A stretch of DNA of 32,000 nucleotides, taken from positions 300,001 through 332,000 of the forward strand of contig JACKFV010000001.1 of NCBI GenBank assembly GCA_020632335.1, written 5' to 3'. A program made the position numbers and the translations under genes. Numbering within the stretch: the stretch's first letter is position 1; the number at the start of each line of letters is the position of its first letter. Source of the stretch: Candidatus Saccharimonadota bacterium. GTDB lineage: Bacteria; Patescibacteriota; Gracilibacteria; UBA4473. Below the pieces are notes generated by a model. The model was not told the DNA's origin and did no database searches. It saw nothing but the letters and a program-made list of their open reading frames with translations. Below, piece after piece: positions 1,056-22,172 of the stretch.

Positions 1056-2315
1056 GTGGTCATGGTTTTTTATCATACGGGTATGGTGTGTCCTCGCATT
1101 CTTCGCCTTCGGAGTGGGTATCTGGCGTGGGGTATCTCTCTCGGGATCCTCAGTATATTGCTGCCACTGCAGAGCCTAGCAATAGGATTTAGTGATAATA
1201 GCGCTATTCCCTCCTGGGCGGGGCCGGCCATCTATTCGCTGGGGGAGCGGGGTATCATCACCGGGAATGGCGATGGGAGCTTTGCCCCTGACCGGCCGGT
1301 GAACCGCGCGGAGTTCGCGAAGCTCTTTGTCGGTCTGCACAATCTGCCGGGAGCGGCACTGGCCGCGGGGCAGTTTACTGACGTCAGCGGTGACGAGTGG
1401 TATGCCCCTTACGTGGGGGCCGCGGTGGCCAAGGGCTGGCTGAATGGCTATAGCGACAAGACCTTTCGCCCGGGGGACCCCATCAACCGTGCCGAGGTAG
1501 CGAAAATCATCGGGGAGGCGCTGGACGAGCCCTTTAAAAGTGATATCCCTGCCGGAGCGCCGTGGTATGATAAGTACTTCTATAAGCTGAATGATACCGG
1601 GCTGATGGCGCACGGAACGGATTTCTCCAACGCCGAGCCGGCCGTATACCCCACCCGCGCCGAGGTGAGCGAGCAGCTCTTCCGGTATATGATCTACCGG
1701 CAGTTCCTCACCACAGAGGATCTGCAGCCCTTTGACGGCTTTGACCCGTATACCGCTACGGGGGGCGTGATGGTGGTGAGTGACAGCCTCAGCAGCACAG
1801 ACCCCCTAGCAGATGCGAGCATGTACGAGTATATTGAGCCCTTCCCGCTGCGCTACCCCATCAGCCCCAATGCCGGCACGATGCATATACAAGACACCGG
1901 GCAGCTGGAGGCGGGCTATTATCTAGAGCCAGACGAGCGGAATATCGCGCTGCACTCGCTGCAGTTTACGTGTGAGAAGACGGCCGAGTGCAAGCTCTAC
2001 GAGCTGCGGTACCGGCTGGTGGGTATCGGGCATCTGAGTGATTTTTCTTCGCTCTGGCTGGAGGTAGACGGCCGCGTGGCCAGTAAGGAAATCATGCCGA
2101 TCAGCGACACCAACACCATTGATATCCAGCTCAGCGCGCCGATAGTGGTCTCGCACGTGCCGCGCAAGGTGGAGCTGCGGGGCTCGCTCATCCCCACCGC
2201 GAGGAAGATAGACGGGCGGTTTGCGGTCTTCATCACCGAGTGGGTAGGCGCTAATACGCGGTCTATGCTGGGGCTTTTCCCGCTCGCCGGGCCGGACCTG
2301 AAGCTGCTACGGTAG
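1056..2315 (+). CDS. secreted protein with three N-terminal S-layer-homology (SLH) domains and an uncharacterised C-terminal region
   Basis: Signal-peptide-like LAWGISLGILSILLPLQSLA. SLH repeats read FSDNSAIPSWAGPAIYSLGERGIITGNGDGSFAPDRPVNRAEFAKL, FTDVSGDEWYAPYVGAAVAKGWLNGYSDKTFRPGDPINRAEVAKI, and a third ending YPTRAEVSEQLFRY. The true start may be the Met at 1083. Confidence 0.75.
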   Translation: MVMVFYHTGMVCPRILRLRSGYLAWGISLGILSILLPLQSLAIGFSDNSAIPSWAGPAIYSLGERGIITGNGDGSFAPDRPVNRAEFAKLFVGLHNLPGAALAAGQFTDVSGDEWYAPYVGAAVAKGWLNGYSDKTFRPGDPINRAEVAKIIGEALDEPFKSDIPAGAPWYDKYFYKLNDTGLMAHGTDFSNAEPAVYPTRAEVSEQLFRYMIYRQFLTTEDLQPFDGFDPYTATGGVMVVSDSLSSTDPLADASMYEYIEPFPLRYPISPNAGTMHIQDTGQLEAGYYLEPDERNIALHSLQFTCEKTAECKLYELRYRLVGIGHLSDFSSLWLEVDGRVASKEIMPISDTNTIDIQLSAPIVVSHVPRKVELRGSLIPTARKIDGRFAVFITEWVGANTRSMLGLFPLAGPDLKLLR

Positions 2316-2329
2316 CGGTATCCTCAGTG

Positions 2330-2985
2330 CTGACTTTTAAACTTTTTTGAACTCTGATTTACTTATACGGTAATTACTTCAGCAATATGTATAATATCAA
2401 ATTAGCCAATTTCCCTATGGGGTTTGTAGGCAAGAGAATACTATTTCTTTGAATAATTTTGGCACTTCTAAGTGACCTATTGTGATTTTATAATCACTAT
2501 CTTTGCAACCTGATTCACTTTGTCCCCACATTTCTATATCAAAATTTTCAGCAATTATAAAAGTTCCATGAGCAAGTGCATTTCTTATTTTCCGAACCAA
2601 ATCAGCTAAATCCTTTGGGGAGTCTTTGCCTTGCATAGAAATTTTTATTGTTATAGGTTTCTTGGGTATTTCTTCATTTCTTAAAATAATTATAATTGCC
2701 ATAAAAGTGGCTAAATGTGATCCAGGTGTATAAATAATGTTTTTTCCTTTAATATTACTATCAACAGGACAATATATGCTACAAAATGTATTGTAAAAAT
2801 CTTGAAGCTCTACAGAGTTCTTACTTTCTGAAATAAAATATGCTAAAAAATCAGTGGAGATCATCATTTGAGCCAAGCAATCCATAGTAGTTTTTTTCAT
2901 ATGACATAGAGTAAAGAAATAAGAATCCGTTTTCCACTTCGTGTTACAGAAGGATGCCCTCTAGATTCTAAGTATCCACCTCGCT
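2330..2985. other. low-GC islet, probably horizontally acquired DNA
   Basis: My hand count of 2601-2700 gives 32% GC, against about 64% for 16601-16700. The composition switches sharply near 2330 and near 2985. The islet contains one ORF with AT-rich codon usage (AAA/AAT/ATA/TTT). Confidence 0.7.
2415..2900 (-). CDS. HEPN-superfamily-like protein (Rx4H motif), a putative RNase toxin or abortive-infection-type effector
   Basis: 161-aa ORF. The motif VRKIRNALAHG is encoded at 2568-2585 (AGA AAT GCA CTT GCT CAT = R-N-A-L-A-H). This is the canonical R[NHD]xxxH HEPN signature. No partner gene lies inside the islet. The alternative start Met6 is at 2885. Confidence 0.5.
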   Translation of the reverse strand: MKKTTMDCLAQMMISTDFLAYFISESKNSVELQDFYNTFCSIYCPVDSNIKGKNIIYTPGSHLATFMAIIIILRNEEIPKKPITIKISMQGKDSPKDLADLVRKIRNALAHGTFIIAENFDIEMWGQSESGCKDSDYKITIGHLEVPKLFKEIVFSCLQTP

Positions 2986-3019
2986 GTGGCAAATCACCCC
3001 CCCATCTGCTTGTCATGGA

Positions 3020-4462
3020 GTGATGATTCTGCATACTTCTCGCATGAAGCACGCCTGGCAGTGGATCGTTCTCGTGGTGGGGCTCCTCGGTATAGCCGGG
3101 GGCATCTGGTGGCAGAGAAGCCCCGCGCCGCTGCCGTATGTATCCCAGTACCCGGAGGACGTGACGCTCTACCGGGCTACGCTGAGCGACACGCCCCACC
3201 CGCTTATAGACTCCCTGATGGCACTGTGGCAGAAGGGGGCAGAGCCAGGGCCCGTCACCGCTAGCCGTGGGGGGACGCTCCTCCCGCCTGCCAGTGCTCC
3301 GCTGGAGTCCTCCCTGGCGGATAACCTCGATTTTGCCGCGCTCCGTCCGAGGAGAGGGCACCTCCCCGATGCGCTGCTGTATCTGATGGGAGGAGAATTC
3401 TCCCGCGCTCTGCAGGTGAGTGATAGCTTTCTCAGCGCCTTTGTGCCGGCAATAGCGCCGTATTCTCCGCAGATGCTGCAGCTGTGGGAGGATGAGGCGC
3501 AGCTCACGGTGCGGTATGAGGGGCTGGACGAGCGAGAGAAACCCACCCCACGGGGGACAACGCTGGGGCAGTACATACCCGCAGACGCGGTGTATGCCTT
3601 CCTGGGGGAGGACCTGCAGGGCAGCTATGACCGGACGTTACAGCAGCTCCAGGCCACCGACCCCGCTCTGGCAGAGACGCTTACGGGCGTGATCCGGGCG
3701 GTGACGGCGCAGTACTTTGGTGAGGATTTCTCGCTCAAGCGGGACTTTCTCAGCGCTACCACCGGCCCATATGCGGTCATGCTCACACTGGATCCCGTTA
3801 GCCGTAGCCCCATCTGGACCCTCCTCACCGGCTACACCGGCACCACGGAGAGCCTCACTGCCCCCCTGGAGCAGCTGCAAGCGGTACTCTACCCCGCGGT
3901 GCGCACGGTGGAACTGCCCGACGGTGACACACGGCAAGAGCTCTACGCTGAGCCCGTGGAACGCCTCACGCAGGCGATGTATGCGGACGTGCCCTATACC
4001 ATCGTGCAGGGTAGCGAGGCTCGGGTCTCCTTGGCGTTTAGCCTCCAGGACAACCTCCTCATCCTCAGCAGCCGCACTGAGGGCCTGCACCGGGTGCTAG
4101 ACGCTGCAGCTGAAGAGGCTTCTCGGCTCACCAGCGTAGCGCTAGAGCGTACCCAGCAGGGCTACCTCCAGCTAGATGGCGCTGCGGAGCTCTCCCACCA
4201 TCTCTTTGGGCAGGAATCGCTCCCCCTGGCGCTCCAGTGGCTGCTCACGCATGGTGAGTCGCTCCAGTGGACGACTGATGGCTCCGTGACGACTCTCACC
4301 ATGCCGCGGCGCACAGCCCCCTTGCCAGAGATAGCAGAGGCTACAGACACTACAAAAGCCGCGCCAAACACCCCCCCGGTTGCGCCTACGGAGGAAAATA
4401 CTCCTGAAAATATGCTGGGAGAGGACACAAGCCCTGCGCCCACTACAGCAGCGGGAAAATAG
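3020..4462 (+). CDS. hypothetical N-terminally membrane-anchored protein with a Pro/Thr-rich C-terminal tail
   Basis: 480-aa ORF with backbone-like GC. It has one N-terminal TM (WQWIVLVVGLLGIAGGIWW) and a low-complexity tail (TDTTKAAPNTPPVAPTEENTPENMLGEDTSPAPTTAAGK). I recognised no family motif. Alternative starts are ATG 3023 and ATG 3044. Confidence 0.55.
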   Translation: MMILHTSRMKHAWQWIVLVVGLLGIAGGIWWQRSPAPLPYVSQYPEDVTLYRATLSDTPHPLIDSLMALWQKGAEPGPVTASRGGTLLPPASAPLESSLADNLDFAALRPRRGHLPDALLYLMGGEFSRALQVSDSFLSAFVPAIAPYSPQMLQLWEDEAQLTVRYEGLDEREKPTPRGTTLGQYIPADAVYAFLGEDLQGSYDRTLQQLQATDPALAETLTGVIRAVTAQYFGEDFSLKRDFLSATTGPYAVMLTLDPVSRSPIWTLLTGYTGTTESLTAPLEQLQAVLYPAVRTVELPDGDTRQELYAEPVERLTQAMYADVPYTIVQGSEARVSLAFSLQDNLLILSSRTEGLHRVLDAAAEEASRLTSVALERTQQGYLQLDGAAELSHHLFGQESLPLALQWLLTHGESLQWTTDGSVTTLTMPRRTAPLPEIAEATDTTKAAPNTPPVAPTEENTPENMLGEDTSPAPTTAAGK

Positions 4463-7539: not shown

Positions 7540-8273
7540 GCTGTAGGAGGTTGGAGGCGATATTCTACCCGGGTCACGGCCTGCTGGAATGCCTGGCGCA
7601 TCTCCACCGCGTAGGGGTTATAGGTCATCATATCGTGGAAGAGTTGCCAGCTGTCGTTCTGCACATGAGCAAAGGTCTCACAGAGTTTGCGGAATCCTGG
7701 GGTGTCTACGCGCGTCAGGTGCACCTGCAGCTCCTCCGCCAGGCGCCCCACGTAGTGTGTCAGCCCCAGGCTCCATGCAATGGCGCGGTCGTGCTCCTCG
7801 CAGGTCATGGGTTCTACCACCACCTGCATGCGCTGCCAGAACTGCTCATAGGCTGTGGCTACCACGGCTGGCGCGCTGATATTCTCTATCATGATCCGCT
7901 GGCCAAACATCTGTGTGCCGCCCACCGTCCCATCAGGACCAAAGAGCGGGTGGCTCATGAGCAGGGGTTGCCCAGCCGGTAGCGCCTGCTGTGCCCACTG
8001 CAGTGGGAGCATCTTCACACTGGCGATGTCGATGAGGGTCGTCTCGGGGCTGAGCACTGGCGCCAAAGCCTCATAGAGCGGTAGCAGCTGCGATATCGGC
8101 ACGCAGGGCAGGCAGATATCTGCGCCGTCTAGCACCGCAGCGTAGCTCTGGTGGGTGCTGACTGCCGGTAACTGCGAGTCATACACCCTCACCGTAGCCG
8201 CCGGCCAGTAGCGCTGCAGTAGCTGGTACAGCAGCCCCCCCATTCTTCCATGGCCGAGGAGCGCTATTTGCAT
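7536..8273 (-). CDS. prephenate/arogenate dehydrogenase family protein (TyrA-like)
   Basis: N-terminal Rossmann motif IALLGHGRMGG. The segment EEHDRAIAWSLGLTHYVGR resembles the PDH active-site region (HD...SH.PH). The 245-aa ORF overlaps ileS by 10 nt and hisS by 4 nt. Confidence 0.5.
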   Translation of the reverse strand: MQIALLGHGRMGGLLYQLLQRYWPAATVRVYDSQLPAVSTHQSYAAVLDGADICLPCVPISQLLPLYEALAPVLSPETTLIDIASVKMLPLQWAQQALPAGQPLLMSHPLFGPDGTVGGTQMFGQRIMIENISAPAVVATAYEQFWQRMQVVVEPMTCEEHDRAIAWSLGLTHYVGRLAEELQVHLTRVDTPGFRKLCETFAHVQNDSWQLFHDMMTYNPYAVEMRQAFQQAVTRVEYRLQPPTA

Positions 8274-11200
8274 ACTTTTGTCAGGCTAATGCTGAGGCTA
8301 TTGCCGTCTATCTCTAGCAGGTGTTGGCCCGTGCCGGTTGTCCAGCTGCTGGCCAGCACCTCGCTCATAATGCGCTCCTGGTGCTCGCTCAGTACCTCTT
8401 CGAGCACAGGGCTCTCTGTAGCTATGGTGACGTGCACGTGGTCTTCTACGGCAAATCCCTCGCTCTTGCGCAGCTCCTGCACGGCACGAGTGATCTCCCT
8501 GGCCAGCCCCGCACGGTGCAATGCCGGGGTTATCTGGGTATCCAGCACCACCACTATCCCCCTGGAGGAGTCGGCGTCGTAGCCCTCGTTGCACACATAT
8601 TGCACGAGGAACTCCTCTGGCGCCAGTGTGTGCCCCCCCACTACCGCCGTGCCATCTGGCTGCAGCGTATACTGCCCTGCCTTCCCCTGCTGGATCACCT
8701 CCTGCACTGCCCGGCCGAGCCGAGGGCCCACTTTCTTCGCGTCCACAGCGATGATCTGCCGGGCCTTCCCCGCAATATCTCGCACCAGTACTACCTCTTC
8801 TACATTGCATTCGTCGGCCAGTATGGCGGTATCGACCGTCATCCCTTCGGGCAATAGCACCTCCATACGGGCAATCGGCTGCCGCAGTCGTACCCCCGCG
8901 CGTGACCGCACCGCCCCCGCCAGACGCACGATTTCTCGCATTGTGGCCGTGGTAGCCGAGAGCTCCGGCGCGTCATACTGCGGCTGGGGGAGCGGCCAGT
9001 ACTGCCAGTGCACTGACCCCTCCCCCCCCAGGCGCTGCCAGAGGTCCTCGGCGAGGAAGGGCATCACCGGAGCGATCAGCTTGCTCACCGTACGCAGTAC
9101 ATGGTCCAGCGTCTGGTAGCCACTGCGCTTGGCGTCCGTCATGCCACTGGCCCAGAACCGCCGCCGGCTGCGGCGTATGTACCAGTTATTCAGCTGATCG
9201 ATGAAGCCCGAGAGGGCGTTGTAGGCGTGGTCGATCTCATAGCGGTCCAGCCGAGTGGTGAGGTGCCGCGTGAGCTGCTGCAGCTCGCTGAGAATCCAGC
9301 GGTCTAGGTCTGTGGCTGGCTCTGGGAGGAGATACCTCTCCTGGACTTCCGCATTGTGCAGGTGTGGGTAGCGCTGCCGCAGGCCATCCTCCTGCCACTC
9401 CCAGCGCTCTTGTATCCCCCCTATCACCGCATGGCAGGCCACCACCACCCGCTGCCCGGGGTGCTTGGCGGCCGTCTGCACCATCCACTGCTGCACTCGC
9501 TCCCGTACGTCTTCATAGGGTTCTAAGCTCTCGCGTACTCCTGGGGCATGCCGCGGCTGCCGGTTGCCCGTGGGGGTGTAGCGCTCCCGTAGTCGTAGGT
9601 CCGTCTGTATCTCCCCCGTGTAGCCCGTGCCGGATTGCAGTATCTCTGCGGTCTGCACCGTGCGCAGCAGTGGCGAGGCATAGAGCGCGTCTATAGGCCC
9701 CAGTTTGGCAGCCGTAGCAGCTACTTGTTCCCGTCCCTTAGGGGTCAGCGGGTCGTCATTCTCCACCTCTACACTCCAGTAGTCGCGTACATTGCTGTCA
9801 GCCTCCCCGTGCCGCACAAAGAGAAACTGCGTCGGTGCCCAGCCGTCTATGCTGGCGTAGGTCTGGAGGAAACTATACGCCGAGCGCAGCGGCAGCACGA
9901 TGCTCTTCAGCACCTCCTCACAGCCCCTATCGGTAAACGCCGCGTCCTCCCCCCGCACCACCGGCTTGGTCATCATGCTGAAGCGTACCGCGTCTGCTCC
10001 GTACTGCGCAAAGGCCGTCATGGGGTCTTTGTAGTTCTTCTTGCGCTTACTGAGTTTCTTGCCGCCCTCCGCCAGCAGCAGCCCGCTGCACACCGCGTGG
10101 GAGAAAATACTCTCCCCCCACAGCGCCACGCCCAGCACGTGCAGGCTGTAGAACCACGTCCGGGTCTGCTCTATGGCCTCCGCAATGAAGTCTGCCTTGC
10201 GGTAGGTGTCGGTCTCATAGGGGTAGCCCAGGCTGGCATAGGGCATAGACCCGCTCTCAAACCAGCAGTCCAGTACCTCGGGTATGCGCCGCATGGTGCC
10301 GCCCTGCTCGCCCGTCCAGGTCAGGGAGTCGATGGATTCTCGGTGGAGGTCATCTACCGTCTGCCCACTCTTTGCCTCCAGCTCTGCTATCGAGCCGATG
10401 ATCTGCGTTTCGCCCGTTTCCTCACACCGCCACACCGGCATGGGCGTCCCCCAGTAGCGGTTGCGGCTGATGGCCCAGTCTGGCGCGCTGGCAAGGCCAT
10501 TGCCGAATCGCCCGTGCTTCACATGCTCGGGTACCCAGGTGATGGACTCGGCCGCGCGGATCATGGCGGGCTTCAGCTGCTGGACGTCCACAAACCAGGT
10601 CTTGATGGCCCGGTACATGAGCGCGCAGTCAGTGCGGTAGCAGTGCGGGTAGCTGTGGCGTATCTGCTCTCGCCGGTAGAGCTGCCCCCCCGCTTGCAGC
10701 GTAGCCATTACCCAGCGGTTGGCGTTGGCCTCTTTGCTGCCCTCCACCACGGGGTCATCGCGGAAGTATATCCCCTCCAGCGCGGGTATCTCGGCCGTAA
10801 AGTAGCCACTCATGTCTATAGGGTCCACGCCATACACCCCCTGCTCGCGGCAGAGCTCGGCGTCCTCCGCCCCATACGCCGGCGCAAAGTGAACAATCCC
10901 CGTGCCCTGACTGGTCGTTACATAGTCTCCGGCATCATGCAGACATACAAAGGCACGACCATCACTTTTGCTACCAGGCAGCAACTGCAATCCGCTGGCA
11001 AAGTCAAAGAGCGGCGTGTACCCCATACCAGAGAAGTCCCGCCCCAGCTGGGTGCGTTCCACGCGGTAGTCACCCTCAGTGAAGTAGCGAGCTACAGCGT
11101 CTGTTGCCAGCCAGTAGCTCTTGCCATGGTAGTGCACCAGGCTGTACTCCGTATCTCGTCCAAAGCCAAGCGCTCGGTTAGCCGGGAGCGTCCAGGGGGT

Positions 11201-11872
11201 GGTCGTCCAGGCCAGGGCGATGGTGCCATCCTCTAGCAAAAACTCTACTGTGACCGCAGGGTCGTCTATGTCGGCATAGCCTTCATTGGCCTCAAAGTTA
11301 CTCAGCGGACTGCCCAGCTTGGGACTATAGGGGATCACCTTCGTCCCCTCATAGATGTGGCCGCGCTCATAGAGGGTCTGGAACACCCACCATACGCTCT
11401 GCATGTAGCTGGGGTACAGGGTTTTGTAGTCGTTCTGGAAGTCAATCCAGCGGCCCATGCGCTCCACCACGGGCTCCCACGCGGCCTCGCAGCCGTCTAT
11501 TTTAGCCCGGCACAGGCGGTTAAATGCCGGGATGCCAATGCGCTCGATGTCTGGTTTACCAGCCAAACCATGGTCTTTTTGTACCTCAAACTCCACTGGG
11601 ACACCGTGGCAGTCCCACCCGAATCGTCGCTCCACCCGGTAGCCCTGCATAGTCTTGTACCGCGGGATGAGGTCTTTCGTCGTCCCCTGCAGGAGGTGCC
11701 CGTAGTGAGGCGTCCCCGTGGCGAATGGTGGCCCGTCGAGGAAGACAAAAGGGTGACGCGCAGAGCGACTCTCTACGCTGTGGTGGAAGGCATTGAGCCG
11801 CTCCCAGAGCTGCAAGATGCGCTCCTCCTCTGCAGCGATGGAGACCGAGTTGTCATAGGGCCTGAGGCGCAT
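8264..11872 (-). CDS. ileS: isoleucyl-tRNA synthetase (type 2-like) with an inserted histidine-phosphatase domain
   Basis: HIGH motif is PHYGH (residues 55-59). The CP1 editing block is WTTTPWTLPAN. The KMSKS equivalent is KLSKRKKNY (residues 606-614). The anticodon-domain start is DLDRWILSELQQL, followed by NWYIRRSRRRFW. At 1202 aa it is about 150-170 aa longer than the type-2 IleRS I recall. Confidence 0.92.
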   Translation of the reverse strand: MRLRPYDNSVSIAAEEERILQLWERLNAFHHSVESRSARHPFVFLDGPPFATGTPHYGHLLQGTTKDLIPRYKTMQGYRVERRFGWDCHGVPVEFEVQKDHGLAGKPDIERIGIPAFNRLCRAKIDGCEAAWEPVVERMGRWIDFQNDYKTLYPSYMQSVWWVFQTLYERGHIYEGTKVIPYSPKLGSPLSNFEANEGYADIDDPAVTVEFLLEDGTIALAWTTTPWTLPANRALGFGRDTEYSLVHYHGKSYWLATDAVARYFTEGDYRVERTQLGRDFSGMGYTPLFDFASGLQLLPGSKSDGRAFVCLHDAGDYVTTSQGTGIVHFAPAYGAEDAELCREQGVYGVDPIDMSGYFTAEIPALEGIYFRDDPVVEGSKEANANRWVMATLQAGGQLYRREQIRHSYPHCYRTDCALMYRAIKTWFVDVQQLKPAMIRAAESITWVPEHVKHGRFGNGLASAPDWAISRNRYWGTPMPVWRCEETGETQIIGSIAELEAKSGQTVDDLHRESIDSLTWTGEQGGTMRRIPEVLDCWFESGSMPYASLGYPYETDTYRKADFIAEAIEQTRTWFYSLHVLGVALWGESIFSHAVCSGLLLAEGGKKLSKRKKNYKDPMTAFAQYGADAVRFSMMTKPVVRGEDAAFTDRGCEEVLKSIVLPLRSAYSFLQTYASIDGWAPTQFLFVRHGEADSNVRDYWSVEVENDDPLTPKGREQVAATAAKLGPIDALYASPLLRTVQTAEILQSGTGYTGEIQTDLRLRERYTPTGNRQPRHAPGVRESLEPYEDVRERVQQWMVQTAAKHPGQRVVVACHAVIGGIQERWEWQEDGLRQRYPHLHNAEVQERYLLPEPATDLDRWILSELQQLTRHLTTRLDRYEIDHAYNALSGFIDQLNNWYIRRSRRRFWASGMTDAKRSGYQTLDHVLRTVSKLIAPVMPFLAEDLWQRLGGEGSVHWQYWPLPQPQYDAPELSATTATMREIVRLAGAVRSRAGVRLRQPIARMEVLLPEGMTVDTAILADECNVEEVVLVRDIAGKARQIIAVDAKKVGPRLGRAVQEVIQQGKAGQYTLQPDGTAVVGGHTLAPEEFLVQYVCNEGYDADSSRGIVVVLDTQITPALHRAGLAREITRAVQELRKSEGFAVEDHVHVTIATESPVLEEVLSEHQERIMSEVLASSWTTGTGQHLLEIDGNSLSISLTKVCK
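9311..9838 (-). other. histidine-phosphatase (PGAM/His_Phos_1-like) domain inserted in ileS (residues about 679-854)
   Basis: FLFVRHGEADSN, with RHGE encoded at 9803-9814 as CGG CAC GGG GAG. Also LTPKGREQVAA, ASPLLRTVQTAEIL and RVVVACHAVIGG. These are the four conserved blocks of the RHG phosphatase fold in the right order. The segment is in-frame with no stops. Confidence 0.7.
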
Positions 11873-13184: not shown

Positions 13185-13270
13185 GCTCGGGTGGTGGAAC
13201 CGGTAGACACGAGAGACTTAAAATCTCTTGGCCTAGCGCCGTGCGGGTTCGAGTCCCGCCCCGAGCACCA
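13185..13270 (+). tRNA. tRNA-Leu (anticodon UAA), class II long variable arm, CCA encoded
   Basis: Hand-folded. Acceptor GCTCGGG/CCCGAGC. D stem GTG/CAC. Anticodon stem AGAGA/TCTCT with loop CTTAAAA. Variable arm is 14 nt. T arm GCGGG-TTCGAGT-CCCGC. Discriminator A plus CCA. Total 86 nt. Confidence 0.9.
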
Positions 13271-13387
13271 CGCCTAACAGCGGGTAATTGCTGTGCGTGT
13301 GTTGTTCTGGAGTGGTGTATGTACGCAAGAGTGCCAGACCCACCTGCTGCACCACAAAACACATACTCTCCCTCTCAAGTCGCTCCG

Positions 13388-15148
13388 CTAGACGGTTACA
13401 GATTTGGCCAGATTCCGAGGACGATCAGGATTATTCCCTCGCAATGTAGATAAATGATACGCCAGCAACTGCACCGTTATCAAGACCAAAAATGGCTGTA
13501 CCATAGCATTTGCTGAAGGAATGCGAAGCCAGTGCTTTGCGTACTGATGACGGGTATGGGTAATCCCCACGATAACACCACCGCGTGCAGCAGCAATGGT
13601 AGTGTTGTCTCCTGTAGTGACATCATCCCCCAAACTCAACACCGTAAAGCCCTCCTGAAGCAGTGCGAGGGGACCGTGCTTTAGTTCACAGGCGTGCAAA
13701 CCCGATGGATGGATATACGCTACCTCTGCTATCTTGAGTGCTGCTTCCTCCGCAAGTGCTCTGTATACTCCACTGCCAATGATATACAGGTGCTCCGCAG
13801 GTGCTATTTCTCTGGCCACATCAGCTACATACTGGCTAAACTGAGGATTCAGCAGGGCATCGATCTCTCCACTGATAGTTGTCAACTGCTGTAAATATTC
13901 CGGGGTGCCAGCAAGCACATATGCCAGAGCAACCAGGAGTACTAATTGGGCAGTAGCCGCCTTAGTAGAAGCAACGGCAATCTCCTTCTGCATCTGCAGG
14001 TCTACTACCAGATGGCTCATCCGCGCAATACGAGAACGTGGGGTATTGGTAATACAGGCAATACGCGCGCCTTGTGCTGCGGCGTGGAGGAGCGGCTGCA
14101 TCACATCTGCGGTTTCCCCAGACTGGCTGAGCGCGATAACAAGCGTACGATCATCAATACTGTCTCGATACAGATCTGTCTCATAAGCGGGGAAGACCTG
14201 TATTTTCTTCTGGGCTATCTCTGGAGCCAGCTGTGCCATGTACCAGTACCCCGCCTTTGCCATATAGTAGGAGGTCCCACAACCGATAAAAAGCACACGA
14301 TCCGATTCCTGTATCTCCTCCACCAGCAATTGCAATACCGACAGATTCTCCTGTAATACCTTCGGGACAACCCGTTTGGTGTCTTCTAGGATTTCCTTCA
14401 GCATGTGGTAGGAATACCCCTGGAGAGTTGTGGGGGACTCTATAGCGCTCAAAAGAACATCTCTCCGAGGGTTGTCCTCCAAGGTATCTATGCGCTTTAC
14501 CACAATGCGTTGCCCATCTGTAGCTCCCATATCACCATCGTCCAGATAATTAACGGTAGTAGTATAGGACTGAAATGCGAAAGTATCCGATGCGACAAAC
14601 ACCCCCTCAGGCCCCTTCCCCAAGCACAGTGGCGACCGACAAGAAAGAAAATAGAGCTGGTCATCTCCCTCCACCAGTAACACCACCGCATAGCTGCCCT
14701 CCGCCACACTATGAAAGGCCTGTAATGCCCGAAAGGGATCCTCCCCTTGCTGCAGCCGAGCATCTATATACGCCGCCATTACTTCTGTATCCGTCTGGCT
14801 CTGTGGGCAGAATTCTGGTACTTCACCGGCCAGATACTGGTAGTTCTCGAGAATCCCATTATGTACTATGGTTACCCGTCCATAGCGGTGCGGATGGGCA
14901 TTGACGGTACGCACTCCTCCATGTGTTGCCCATCGAGTATGCGCCATTCCGGCTATCCCGGGTAGCGGTGGCAGCTGATGACTGCTCGGCGCTCCGATAT
15001 ATTTCTGTATTGCTACTGTGTCCCCCTGCTGAACCGCTACCCCAAAAGAATCATAGCCCCGATATTCCAGTGCTATCAGCCCCTTATGGAGCTTCTCCAT
15101 CATATGAGGGTCCACAGACCGGGCACGATAAGCCACGATGCCACACAT
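13388..15148 (-). CDS. glmS: glutamine--fructose-6-phosphate aminotransferase (isomerising)
   Basis: True start is MCGIVAY (Ntn catalytic Cys2) at 15148. The track ORF carries a 17-codon upstream extension. SIS-domain block is VIALSQSGETADV. The C-terminus RPRNLAKSVTV is typical of GlmS. GGAG lies 5 nt upstream of the ATG. Confidence 0.92.
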   Translation of the reverse strand: MCGIVAYRARSVDPHMMEKLHKGLIALEYRGYDSFGVAVQQGDTVAIQKYIGAPSSHQLPPLPGIAGMAHTRWATHGGVRTVNAHPHRYGRVTIVHNGILENYQYLAGEVPEFCPQSQTDTEVMAAYIDARLQQGEDPFRALQAFHSVAEGSYAVVLLVEGDDQLYFLSCRSPLCLGKGPEGVFVASDTFAFQSYTTTVNYLDDGDMGATDGQRIVVKRIDTLEDNPRRDVLLSAIESPTTLQGYSYHMLKEILEDTKRVVPKVLQENLSVLQLLVEEIQESDRVLFIGCGTSYYMAKAGYWYMAQLAPEIAQKKIQVFPAYETDLYRDSIDDRTLVIALSQSGETADVMQPLLHAAAQGARIACITNTPRSRIARMSHLVVDLQMQKEIAVASTKAATAQLVLLVALAYVLAGTPEYLQQLTTISGEIDALLNPQFSQYVADVAREIAPAEHLYIIGSGVYRALAEEAALKIAEVAYIHPSGLHACELKHGPLALLQEGFTVLSLGDDVTTGDNTTIAAARGGVIVGITHTRHQYAKHWLRIPSANAMVQPFLVLITVQLLAYHLSTLRGNNPDRPRNLAKSVTV

Positions 15149-15158
15149 AGTGCTCCAT

Positions 15159-15182
15159 AAAAAACAGCGCCAGTGTAGCGCT
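15159..15182 (-). terminator. candidate rho-independent terminator after rpsC, immediately upstream of glmS
   Basis: The minus strand reads AGCGC-tacactg-GCGCT followed by GTTTTTTAT. That is a 5-bp GC stem, a 7-nt loop and a T6 run. It ends about 10 nt before the glmS SD and start. Confidence 0.4.
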
Positions 15183-15234
15183 TTCACAGCAGCACGCAAA
15201 TCCTCTCCAATACAGAGAAAATCGCTTGTGTCTG

Positions 15235-20033: not shown

Positions 20034-21074
20034 TTAAGATGACTGGAGAAGGGTCAGTGCGTCTTGCACCTCGGCAAAGCTCGCGCCCGTCAGCACCTGC
20101 TGCGCTACCCCCCCAGCCCGAAAGAACACGAGTGTATCCTGCACCTTCACGTCATACTCGGCCCGCAGGTTAACGTCGGTGTCATAATTCGCCCGCAGCA
20201 GCGTCACCCCACGGGGAAGCTCACTCAGGCGGTCAGTGAAGGTCTGGTCATGCTGGATGCAACTCGGGCACCACGCCGCGTAGAAGAAGATTGCAAAAGG
20301 CTCATTACTCGCTACCGCGGTGTCAAAGGCCTGCTCGGTATAGGGGAGATACAGCGCCTCTGGCTTCTCCTCAGCGGTGACTTTTTTCGTTATTTCTCCC
20401 CCGGCTATGCTCTCATAGGTCTTGCTCGGCAGTGCCTCTGCGCCCGTAGCGTGCCGGTGCTGACGGTAGAGCAGCTCAGCCAAGAGCCCCCGCGTCACCG
20501 GCTGGTCAAAGGTCATGATGTCCTCTGGCAGCGCATGTTGCACCGCCAGCTCGTCTATGTATACCCGGTACCACGGCGTCGAGGCAGCAAAGGACGGCAG
20601 CGTTCCCTTCGTGATGATTTTCGCTACCTCCGCCACGTTAATCGTCCGCTCGGGGTAGAAATTCCCGTCATCATAGCCCCGGGCCAGCCCCTCACGCATC
20701 AGCACGCAAATATACGGGGCAAACCACATCTCGCTCGGCACGTCATGCAGGGTATAGACATCCGTCGCGCAGGTCATTATTTTCTCCTCCGGGTAGGTGG
20801 CTGCAACGTACATCTTGGCAAATTCCGCGCGGTTCACGGTGCGCTCGGGCTGGTATGTCCCATCACCATAGCCCTGCACAATGCCCGCCTGACGCACATA
20901 GTCTACCGCCGCCGCGTGGGGGTGGCTCTCTGGTACGTCCGGGAAGGGATCTGCGGGGGGAGTGGGAACCGAGACAGTGCTCGCCGCGGTGCTGAAGTCC
21001 AGAGTAAAGACCGCCCCGAATGCGCCTGCAAGCACCACAGCGGGGAGGAGAAATCGTCGGAGAAGAGAAGACAT
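20034..21074 (-). CDS. secreted SLH-domain protein with a C-terminal thioredoxin-fold domain (WCPSC)
   Basis: Signal peptide is LLRRFLLPAVVLAGAFGAVF. SLH repeats include FPDVPESHPHAAAVDYVRQAGIVQGYGDGTYQPERTVNRAEFAKM and LHDVPSEMWFAPYICVLMREGLARGYDDGNFYPERTINVAEVAKI. The C-terminus FAIFFYAAWCPSCIQHDQTF carries the thioredoxin CxxC active site. Confidence 0.75.
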   Translation of the reverse strand: MSSLLRRFLLPAVVLAGAFGAVFTLDFSTAASTVSVPTPPADPFPDVPESHPHAAAVDYVRQAGIVQGYGDGTYQPERTVNRAEFAKMYVAATYPEEKIMTCATDVYTLHDVPSEMWFAPYICVLMREGLARGYDDGNFYPERTINVAEVAKIITKGTLPSFAASTPWYRVYIDELAVQHALPEDIMTFDQPVTRGLLAELLYRQHRHATGAEALPSKTYESIAGGEITKKVTAEEKPEALYLPYTEQAFDTAVASNEPFAIFFYAAWCPSCIQHDQTFTDRLSELPRGVTLLRANYDTDVNLRAEYDVKVQDTLVFFRAGGVAQQVLTGASFAEVQDALTLLQSS

Positions 21075-21226: not shown

Positions 21227-21619
21227 CTAGGCGTTTGGTTCGATACCAGAGCCCACCGTAAGGACAGTATTCACGATGGCGTAGCTGAGCAGGATGATGA
21301 TAATCCCGACAATAGCGTAGATGATCGCGTTGATCCCCGCAGACTTCTTGTCAGAGTTGTCCGCCCCACCCACGATGGTCATGTACCCTCCATAGATGAT
21401 GACTGCCACTGCCACCAGGCCGAGGAAGAAGAGGAACCAGTTGATCACCCGACGGATGAGGGCCCGGATCGATTGCTCTCCAGAGGTAGCCATAGAAACA
21501 GACTCTGGGCTGTCGAGCGGATTAATGAGTTGTGCATGGGCCACGAGACCTGGGTCTATTACCAGAGCCAGAGCACATGCCGACAGCACACCGAGTGCAG
21601 GAGCAATATAGGATTTCAT
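21227..21619 (-). CDS. small secreted two-TM protein, TrbC/VirB2-like 'T4SS pilin' type common in CPR genomes
   Basis: Signal peptide ends ...VAHAQ. The segment LINPL...IRALIRRVINWFLFFLGLVAVAVIIYGGYMTIVGGADNSDKKSAGINAIIYAIVGIIIILLSYAIVNTVL gives the TM-GG-x-polar loop-K-TM layout of that family. The family assignment is from memory of its pattern. Confidence 0.55.
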   Translation of the reverse strand: MKSYIAPALGVLSACALALVIDPGLVAHAQLINPLDSPESVSMATSGEQSIRALIRRVINWFLFFLGLVAVAVIIYGGYMTIVGGADNSDKKSAGINAIIYAIVGIIIILLSYAIVNTVLTVGSGIEPNA

Positions 21620-21741
21620 GAGGAGAATGGGTTAGGTATCCTGTAGAAACATTAGTAGCTTAGCATAGCTCCGGAGAGCGTGGCAAGCATTTTCTCCAGA
21701 AAATACTATGATTCTCCCCCCTGAAAGCAAGCAAATCCACA

Positions 21742-21769
21742 TTGACAAGCCAGTGCGGTAGGGTAGATT
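21742..21769 (+). promoter_or_regulatory. candidate promoter for tRNA-Leu(CAG)
   Basis: TTGACA (21742-21747), a 16-nt spacer, then TAGATT (21764-21769). The mature tRNA 5' end lies 22 nt downstream of the -10. The region also contains the hairpin GTGCGG/CCGCAC, which makes the call ambiguous. Confidence 0.35.
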
Positions 21770-21790
21770 CCGCACGGATTTATAGATCGT

Positions 21791-21876
21791 GCTACGGTGG
21801 CGGAATTGGTAGACGCGCACGTTTCAGGGACGTGTATCCCCCGGATGTGAGAGTTCGAGTCTCTCCCGTAGCACCA
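21791..21876 (+). tRNA. tRNA-Leu (anticodon CAG), class II, CCA encoded
   Basis: Acceptor GCTACGG/CCGTAGC. D arm GCG-GAATTGGTAGA-CGC. Anticodon stem CACGT/ACGTG with loop TTCAGGG. Variable arm is 14 nt. T arm GAGAG-TTCGAGT-CTCTC. Ends in ACCA. Total 86 nt. Confidence 0.92.
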
Positions 21877-21910
21877 CAACTCCAAGAATAAAGTCATATA
21901 TCGTCATACG

Positions 21911-21934
21911 AAAAAACCCGCATGGCGGGATTTT
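21911..21934. terminator. bidirectional rho-independent terminator shared by tRNA-Leu (+) and rpmG (-)
   Basis: AAAAAA-CCCGC-atg-GCGGG-ATTTT. The GC stem is flanked by an A-run on one side and a T-run on the other. It sits between two convergent genes. Confidence 0.6.
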
Positions 21935-21962
21935 CTACAGGTCTAGAGTGAGCAAAGCGGCG

Positions 21963-22172
21963 CTACTTATTCTGCGTACGGCTGATACGCTGCGCTTTAT
22001 GAATGGTGTGCTTGCGCAGTGCTGGGCAGTACTTCTTCTGCTCAAAGCTCTTCACGTCAATATTCTGCGTATTCAGCAGCACGGTGTAGTTCCCCACTTT
22101 TTTGCCGGTCTCCTGCTGTAATTCGGTACAGTAGAGGGAGAAGAAGGCTCGTTTTTTGGTCGCTCGTGGCAT
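21963..22172 (-). CDS. rpmG: 50S ribosomal protein L33
   Basis: 69-aa basic protein. KKYCPALRKHTIHKA matches the conserved L33 C-terminal block (KKFCP.CRKHT.HKE). Each of the two CxxC pairs retains only one Cys (C-T-E-L and C-P-A-L). Confidence 0.7.
   Translation of the reverse strand: MPRATKKRAFFSLYCTELQQETGKKVGNYTVLLNTQNIDVKSFEQKKYCPALRKHTIHKAQRISRTQNK

Follow-up and report, generated by a model that had tools for sequence, protein, structure and literature searches.

The DNA analysed here is a 32-kb stretch of contig JACKFV010000001.1, hereafter the window, from a Candidatus Peribacteria metagenome-assembled genome (MAG). Near its left end lies an AT-rich islet of 641 bp with one gene, which encodes a 161-aa protein carrying a HEPN-type Rx4H motif. 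The reading that we favour, with a probability somewhat better than even, is that this gene codes for a stand-alone putative HEPN RNase, recently acquired and acting as a toxin or as an abortive-infection-type effector. The parts of this composite reading carry different weights. The acquisition of the gene and its placement in a protein family are held with considerable confidence; the functional part, namely that the product is an RNase and a toxic effector, stays tentative, at a little less than even.

A foreign AT-rich islet between two host genes

Along the window, the GC content measured in 200-bp segments passes from 0.62-0.64 to 0.275-0.33 (~ 2300-2900) and back to 0.63-0.69, and a two-changepoint maximum-likelihood fit gives 0.304 within the islet and 0.621 outside it. 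This agrees with an initial annotation, made from the letters of the stretch, which had described a low-GC islet in a high-GC backbone. The islet is the sole such dip in 32 kb: elsewhere the lowest GC of any 600-bp segment is 0.485, for a mean of 0.599 and a standard deviation of 0.039. Published Peribacteria genomes, which are of ~ 1.25 Mb and without CRISPR-Cas, average 58.5% GC (PMC4736985), so the GC-rich backbone can be taken as the native composition. On both sides of the islet a remnant of spacer with normal GC is left over, ~ 19 bp on the left, where the stop codon (2313-2315) of an SLH-domain (S-layer homology) gene stands 19 bp before the islet, and ~ 70 bp on the right, before the gene of the hypothetical protein H6771_01495. 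Both flanking genes are intact (Table 1).

The junctions are also present in an independent assembly product. Indeed, a Logan contig of 995 bp (L001, run SRR12358675) is 100% identical to window positions 2025-3019 and covers both of them. This contig was separately assembled, from a run that may be of the same sample as the MAG. As it runs across both junctions into the flanking host genes, it argues against a chimeric join.

The islet contains a single minus-strand open reading frame (ORF), as had been reported, which is deposited at NCBI as MCB9809634.1 ('hypothetical protein H6771_01490') and whose 161-aa product includes the peptide quoted in the initial annotation, KDLADLVRKIRNALAHG. It is not a chance frame, since the probability of 161 sense codons at islet composition is ~ 5e-6 and the observed open frame, at 181 codons, is longer than any in 2000 shuffles, the longest of which reached 139. 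The AT bias of its codons, noted earlier, extends to all codon positions: GC1, GC2 and GC3 are 0.36, 0.33 and 0.22, compared to 0.61-0.69, 0.37-0.49 and 0.70-0.80 in seven host genes. Moreover, the residues F, Y, M, I, N and K make up 0.40 of the islet protein compared to 0.12-0.20 of host proteins. Given the composition of all three codon positions together with the amino-acid usage, the gene is foreign, barely ameliorated and derived from a donor of ~ 30% GC, which bears out the earlier proposal of a low-GC donor.

The gene is expressible in that it is intact and preceded by a promoter-like site, which straddles the right boundary of the islet. This site is a pattern match only, one of 3 sigma-70-like matches in the region, a number not above that of shuffles (2.2 ± 1.5). 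An intrinsic terminator was not found in the islet. No Shine-Dalgarno sequence precedes the gene, and the same holds for 13 of the 14 host genes examined (-22 to -4). Its lack is hence no barrier to translation. Among host gene starts, e.g. those at 3044, 5156, 7539 and 11872, this 13-in-14 absence is accompanied by the fact that several long host ORFs, as listed, start with GTG or TTG, and translation initiation in the host genome appears to be independent of Shine-Dalgarno sequences.

Placement of the islet protein in the PF18736 family

In Pfam, the islet protein is matched by PF18736 (HEPN pEK499_p136) with 20.8 bits and an E-value of 3.4e-4, over residues 78-123 only. PADLOC and NCBIfam scans gave only motif-level matches of ~ 12 bits, to Cas13b and Cas13e, and the protein is no member of any PHROGs or NCBIfam family. 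Among PDB sequences, phmmer with the islet protein found no match and a profile search no related chain. A word-indexed search of 5.8 billion proteins returned the islet protein itself alone. In an exhaustive phmmer search of 1.84 billion cluster representatives, eight further matches were obtained (E 1e-8 to 7e-4), one of which, an RCC1-repeat protein, was discarded as spurious. The other seven are genuine relatives of 173-270 aa, all above the PF18736 cutoff (34-47 bits). Two more relatives were added by profile search, and the family alignment comprises 10 sequences; PF18736 is the only family matched consistently by all of its members.

In this alignment F39, R106, N107 and H111 are invariant, besides the initiator Met, and Q11, F18, F35, Y36, T58, P59, L63, L66, R103 and A110 are nearly so. 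The R-N-A-L-A-H motif had been located correctly in the initial annotation, as R106 to H111 map to the codons that it named (Table 1), and the conservation of R and H among homologues, on which its HEPN proposal depended, is complete in the 10 sequences. The PF18736 namesake, WP_000528932.1 from the E. coli plasmid pEK499, is a 166-aa 'HEPN family nuclease' that scores 168 bits to PF18736. When the profile of the sub-branch formed by the islet protein and its relatives was compared to it by hhalign, the two aligned with a probability of 95% and an E-value of 3.8e-8 over 129 columns, the R-N-x3-H motifs being superposed and the islet motif facing the MRNSVAH of the namesake.

Since the relatives pass the Pfam cutoff, the sub-branch matches the namesake profile to profile and R, N and H are invariant, the islet protein is, as judged by sequence comparison, a genuine but distant and divergent member of a rare PF18736 sub-branch. 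The claim of a HEPN-motif gene thus stands, PF18736 being a HEPN-clan family, even though the own score of the islet protein in the profile search is sub-threshold. With the rest of PF18736 the protein shares a single domain of ~ 160-180 aa, the invariant R-N-x3-H in the same position and a family that occurs in variable or mobile contexts, whereas it is only ~ 19% identical to the namesake and its sub-branch is very rare (seven small relatives among the 1.84 billion representatives). The relatives are 24-28% identical to it, none being clearly nearest, on source contigs of 35-64% GC, and they point to no donor lineage. In plasmid, phage and viral-contig collections no match was found to the islet protein or to two of the relatives.

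Predicted structure

The HEPN core is an up-down four-helix bundle in which the Rx4-6H motif ends helix 3 and a variable insert lies between helices 2 and 3 (PMC3710099). The sequence signature, Rx4-6H with a polar residue (N, D or H) after the arginine, is present as R106-N107-A-L-A-H111. AlphaFold models were obtained for the islet protein (pLDDT 73, pTM 0.66) and for one relative, P0003 (pLDDT 77, pTM 0.66). From the N-terminus, both display three helices, a loose insert and the motif helix, followed by three to four short beta-strands and a last helix at the C-terminus. In these models, which are of moderate confidence, the motif histidine closes a helix that spans residues 98-111 in the islet protein and 114-126 in P0003. 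The predicted position of the motif at a helix end, with an insert before it, fits the HEPN arrangement. A Foldseek search against BFVD gave no significant match.

Gene contexts of the relatives

The contexts of nine relatives were recovered, mostly on short contigs. The gene lies between the 3' end of gyrB and a Phd/PIN toxin-antitoxin pair, next to a gene for a phage small terminase, between a BrnA-like gene and a DDE transposase gene, beside a DUF6887 gene, near a methylase fragment, adjoining polysaccharide-synthesis genes, or after an ORF with a PD-(D/E)xK-like motif. Neighbours such as the Phd/PIN pair, the BrnA-like gene with the DDE transposase gene, the methylase fragment and the terminase gene are typical of variable or conflict regions. 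No neighbour recurs in the nine contexts (cross-locus BLASTP E-values all > 0.03), and no MNT or other antitoxin gene is adjacent to any of the nine relatives. The homologue search suggested in the initial annotation hence brought relatives to light but neither a donor lineage nor a conserved neighbour. The GC content of the gene is below that of its flanks in all nine contexts, by 0.01 to 0.08, which is of a different order from the deficit of 0.32 found here; the slight deficit in the relatives suits an accessory, mobile gene.

Two of these loci deserve separate mention. On pEK499 (L167, 41727-43013; 111726-113012 of the record), the namesake gene is followed after 12 bp by a gene for a 257-aa hypothetical protein without Pfam match, and the pair, which may form a two-gene system, lies between VapBC modules and IS66; no characterisation of it was found. 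On the P0003 contig (L083, 1-570), the ORF upstream of the relative has a D...EFK arrangement (DDDTGEYLVAEFK) that resembles a PD-(D/E)xK nuclease as judged by eye only, and this hints at a pairing of nuclease and HEPN protein.

Comparison with known systems

The pEK499_p136-like family has been described in restriction-modification (R-M), ART/Macro, NamA-like and Pgl operons (Anantharaman et al. 2013, PMC3710099). None of these contexts is present at the islet, and the tightly linked 257-aa downstream gene of the namesake has no counterpart there either. The stand-alone arrangement is not emphasised in the original description of the family. Nothing was found in the literature on the function of PF18736, nor any experimentally characterised member.

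Among single-gene systems, ApeA offers a functional analogy only. This abortive-infection system consists of a single HEPN protein that responds to a small ligand; the protein is held inactive until infection-derived deoxydinucleotides activate it, upon which it cleaves tRNA (bioRxiv 10.64898/2026.01.26.701840). The likeness is that of a stand-alone HEPN-motif protein without antitoxin. ApeA, however, assembles into large, doughnut-shaped oligomers whose ligand pocket is separate, whereas in the 161 residues of the islet protein no sensor domain can be recognised, and no homology between the two was detected.

Three further classes were ruled out after their defining feature had been looked for and found wanting: HEPN-MNT modules, integron-cassette HEPN proteins and the defence families of PADLOC. 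HEPN-MNT type II/VII modules resemble the islet in their small, often horizontally mobile HEPN toxin with an Rx4H motif, but they belong to a different HEPN family and have an adjacent MNT or antitoxin gene, which is missing here and beside the nine relatives. The integron-cassette HEPN proteins (PDB 3jrt family) are likewise encoded by one-gene units of cassette size, but the islet has neither attC core sites nor integrase, and neither Foldseek nor the profile search of PDB sequences retrieves the 3jrt family. A ToxIN-like type III or other RNA-antitoxin system was rejected too, as no repeat array or structured RNA lies beside the gene, and so was an insertion sequence (IS), miniature inverted-repeat element (MITE) or transposon, as terminal inverted repeats are absent and the 6-bp match between the edges is at chance level.

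Proposed mechanism and alternative explanations

The course of events that we propose is that foreign DNA from a donor of ~ 30% GC was inserted, probably recently, into a spacer of ~ 100 bp between two core genes, and that it brought one intact gene, bordered on either side by ~ 75-80 bp of its original surroundings. Illegitimate or microhomology-mediated recombination of taken-up DNA would be the most likely route of entry, as neither a recombinase nor a recombination site is present. In HEPN proteins catalysis is carried out by the R and H, and the protein is usually active as a dimer or oligomer (PMC3710099). Like those with an intact R-[N/D/H]-x3-H, the islet protein would be a metal-independent RNase using R106, N107 and H111, its active site probably built across a homodimer. 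By analogy with single-gene HEPN abortive-infection proteins, it would be a stand-alone toxic effector that stays latent until a trigger such as phage infection. RNase activity, a role in toxicity or defence, dimerisation, entry route and recency are all points that we infer.

If active, the protein would rank among the smallest HEPN effectors that act alone, and a symbiotic, genome-reduced bacterium of the candidate phyla radiation (CPR), from a lineage reported to lack CRISPR-Cas, would have taken over a ready-made conflict gene from a donor of very different composition. The GC contrast of 32 points and the clean intergenic placement make this an unusually clear single-gene transfer into a Peribacteria genome, and the gene is a tractable candidate for the study of the uncharacterised PF18736 family. 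Taken alone, however, AT-rich islets that carry a putative toxin or defence gene are commonly found, and current understanding is not overturned by this one.

Several observations weigh against the stand-alone effector. The islet protein itself falls under the PF18736 gathering cutoff (20.8 compared to 26.6 bits), and it has lost ~ 9-12 residues before the motif helix that its relatives have, including a semi-conserved W-G; the low score is probably due to this deletion. Foldseek searches of the PDB with the two models retrieved no solved HEPN structure (best E-values 0.07 and 0.9, TM ≤ 0.24), and the three or four beta-strands that the models place between the motif helix and the last helix are atypical for HEPN. 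Furthermore, the 10-sequence alignment contains no invariant acidic residue of the Ex3[KR] kind known from many HEPN families; the position of D34 is acidic in most of the 10 sequences, without being conserved. According to the published survey, this residue of helix 2 is found in many, not all, HEPN families (PMC3710099). In PADLOC v2, which includes ApeA and Abi HEPN families, the islet protein has just the 12-bit Cas13b motif match at the thresholds used, and the nine relatives and the namesake have none. A toxin without antitoxin is hard to maintain when unregulated; the gene may therefore lack activity, expression or toxicity. Lastly, recency and acquisition at this site are read from composition, since the collections searched hold no relatives of the host.

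In the main rival explanation, the islet is an inert passenger, a scrap of foreign origin captured recently, with a gene that is unexpressed, non-functional or non-toxic in this host, neutral and eventually lost. We regard it as unlikely, though ahead of every other explanation weighed here against the stand-alone effector. A passenger would account for the lack of partner, regulator and mobility function, for the sub-threshold Pfam score and the internal deletion relative to all relatives, for promoter-like matches that are not enriched over shuffles, for a codon usage extremely mismatched to the host and for a gene known from one genome only. It accounts less well for an ORF that is intact and keeps every invariant residue of the family, R106, N107 and H111 included, and for an insertion that spared both neighbouring genes as well as the promoter-like site of the downstream gene; in addition, reduced genomes of ~ 1.25 Mb such as those of these CPR bacteria (PMC4736985) would be expected to purge useless DNA quickly. 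An orphan toxin, whose antitoxin would either be encoded elsewhere in the genome or be supplied by the islet itself, as an RNA or a very small peptide, is given a low probability. Many small HEPN proteins are indeed toxins of two-gene modules (PMC3710099), the namesake has its 257-aa neighbour 12 bp downstream, and some relatives have small upstream ORFs, of 79 aa (BrnA-like) and 91 aa. In the islet, however, there is no second ORF > 35 aa, and the only small ones (20-35 aa) are antisense inside the gene and without support. No MNT or antitoxin-like gene is found in the islet or in the 32-kb window, and no neighbour is conserved in the nine contexts. The non-protein partner considered in the initial annotation fares no better: tandem repeats in the islet amount to a 1.9-copy, low-score match of 10 nt by TRF, its arms fold no better than dinucleotide shuffles (z -0.05 to +1.39), and Rfam has no match in it even at E ≤ 1. 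What had been described as a solo gene hence remains one: the window contains no partner, and none recurs among the contexts of the relatives.

Two further explanations are disfavoured. A very small mobile cassette had been raised in the initial annotation; in the form of a site-specific unit, integron-like or transposon-derived and moved by a recombinase acting in trans, it is now very unlikely. The size of the islet (641 bp, one gene) is that of a cassette, a separate 'integron cassette HEPN' family exists (PMC3710099) and the 6 bp GTATCC occur at both edges (2318-2323 and 2972-2977). The direct repeat reported in that annotation reduces to this exact match, which is at chance level: 38-78% of shuffles give an equal or better match, as do 55% of control window pairs spaced 640 bp apart. 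Moreover, neither strand of 2300-3050 contains an attC core site (GTTRRRY or RYYYAAC), the islet has no terminal inverted repeats or target-site duplications, and no part of its sequence recurs elsewhere in the window. As had been stated for MNT, antitoxin, integrase and transposase genes, none accompanies the islet in the window, of which 2.3 kb lie to its left; nor does the 32 kb hold any phage or recognised defence gene. Least probable of all is an artefact of assembly or binning, in which a low-GC fragment of another organism was spliced into a Peribacteria contig. A GC jump of 30 points and the lack of a host relative for comparison would be in keeping with it, but L001 is identical to the window on both sides of both junctions, into host genes, and the insertion falls precisely within an intergenic spacer with the two flanking ORFs intact.

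Besides the stand-alone effector as formulated above, a bolder version of it can be put forward, which we consider doubtful and no stronger than the passenger. The whole PF18736 sub-branch might be a self-sufficient single-gene HEPN immunity or toxin module without antitoxin, which would sense its trigger via the N-terminal helices (Q11, F18, F35-Y36, F39, T58-P59) and spread as a promoter-plus-gene unit by DNA uptake and illegitimate recombination, even into reduced, CRISPR-less CPR genomes. In a radical variant of this proposal, suggested by the two concordant models that retrieve no HEPN structure, the family could have, in place of the classical HEPN four-helix bundle, a distinct alpha/beta fold with a convergent or much-remodelled RNxxxH site.

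Host genome and other features of the window

The window is core housekeeping DNA. It encodes an ion-channel protein, two SLH-domain proteins, a CYTH protein, RuvB, HisRS, prephenate dehydrogenase, IleRS, UDG, GlmS, ribosomal proteins L2 and L4, signal peptidase and S1, as well as two tRNA-Leu. The right-flank protein H6771_01495 is 100% identical to NCBI MCB9809635.1 of the Candidatus Peribacteria bacterium MAG, encoded on a contig of 630,865 bp, and a promoter-like site for its gene remains at 3010-3037. In its 480-aa frame it has no relatives in GTDB species genomes or Joint Genome Institute (JGI) metagenomes and matches itself alone among 5.8 billion proteins. As the best identity of RuvB is just ~ 56-60% in both GTDB species genomes and JGI metagenomes, these collections offer no related genome for an empty-site comparison.

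Table 1. Coordinates of the islet, its parts and the flanking host genes in the window
Feature	Position	Strand	Evidence and remarks
AT-rich foreign islet	2335-2975	.	641 bp; two-changepoint maximum-likelihood segmentation, composition profiles, Logan contig L001 at both junctions
Gene for 161-aa PF18736-like (HEPN pEK499_p136 family) protein	2415-2900	-	ORF, sub-cutoff Pfam match, relatives, hhalign; chance ORF excluded
Codons for R106-N107-A-L-A-H111, putative catalytic Rx4H motif	2568-2585	-	Alignment of 10 sequences, namesake alignment, model
Promoter-like site, TTGCCA-16 nt-TAGAAT	2965-2992	-	Consensus scan, 10/12 matches; upstream of islet gene, across right boundary of islet
5' non-coding arm of islet, upstream of gene	2901-2975	-	No Shine-Dalgarno sequence; RNA fold z = +0.11
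3' non-coding arm of islet, past stop	2335-2414	-	No terminator, attC or repeats; RNA fold z = +1.39 (minus), +0.51 (plus)
Left flanking host gene, SLH-domain (S-layer homology) protein	1056-2315	+	Pfam SLH, 99 bits; GC 0.598, GC3 0.74
Right flanking host gene, hypothetical protein H6771_01495, 472 aa	3044-4462	+	ATG at 3044; ORF open from 3020

Some features of the host genes were observed in passing. The IleRS gene (8264-11872, minus strand) encodes 1202 aa with a His_Phos_1 domain at residues 684-817 (75.8 bits, E 4.6e-21), which sits between the catalytic core and the anticodon-binding domain and is unusual for IleRS. Within and around the GlmS gene (13388-15199, minus strand), at 13185-15200, the GC content is ~ 0.51-0.53, 8-10 points under the backbone, and a tRNA-Leu(taa) gene adjoins at 13185-13270; this region may be an older acquisition or simply reflect gene-specific composition. 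The second tRNA-Leu gene (anticodon cag; 21791-21876, plus strand) was found by ARAGORN and missed by the whole-window Rfam scan, a local scan giving 50.6 bits, and it lies within a stretch (21601-22000) whose GC content, 0.48, is the second lowest in the window. Finally, the SLH-domain proteins are encoded at 1056-2315 (plus strand) and 20034-21074 (minus strand), one of them being fused to a thioredoxin domain, and the occurrence of two in the window agrees with the published report of S-layer genes in Peribacteria (PMC4736985).

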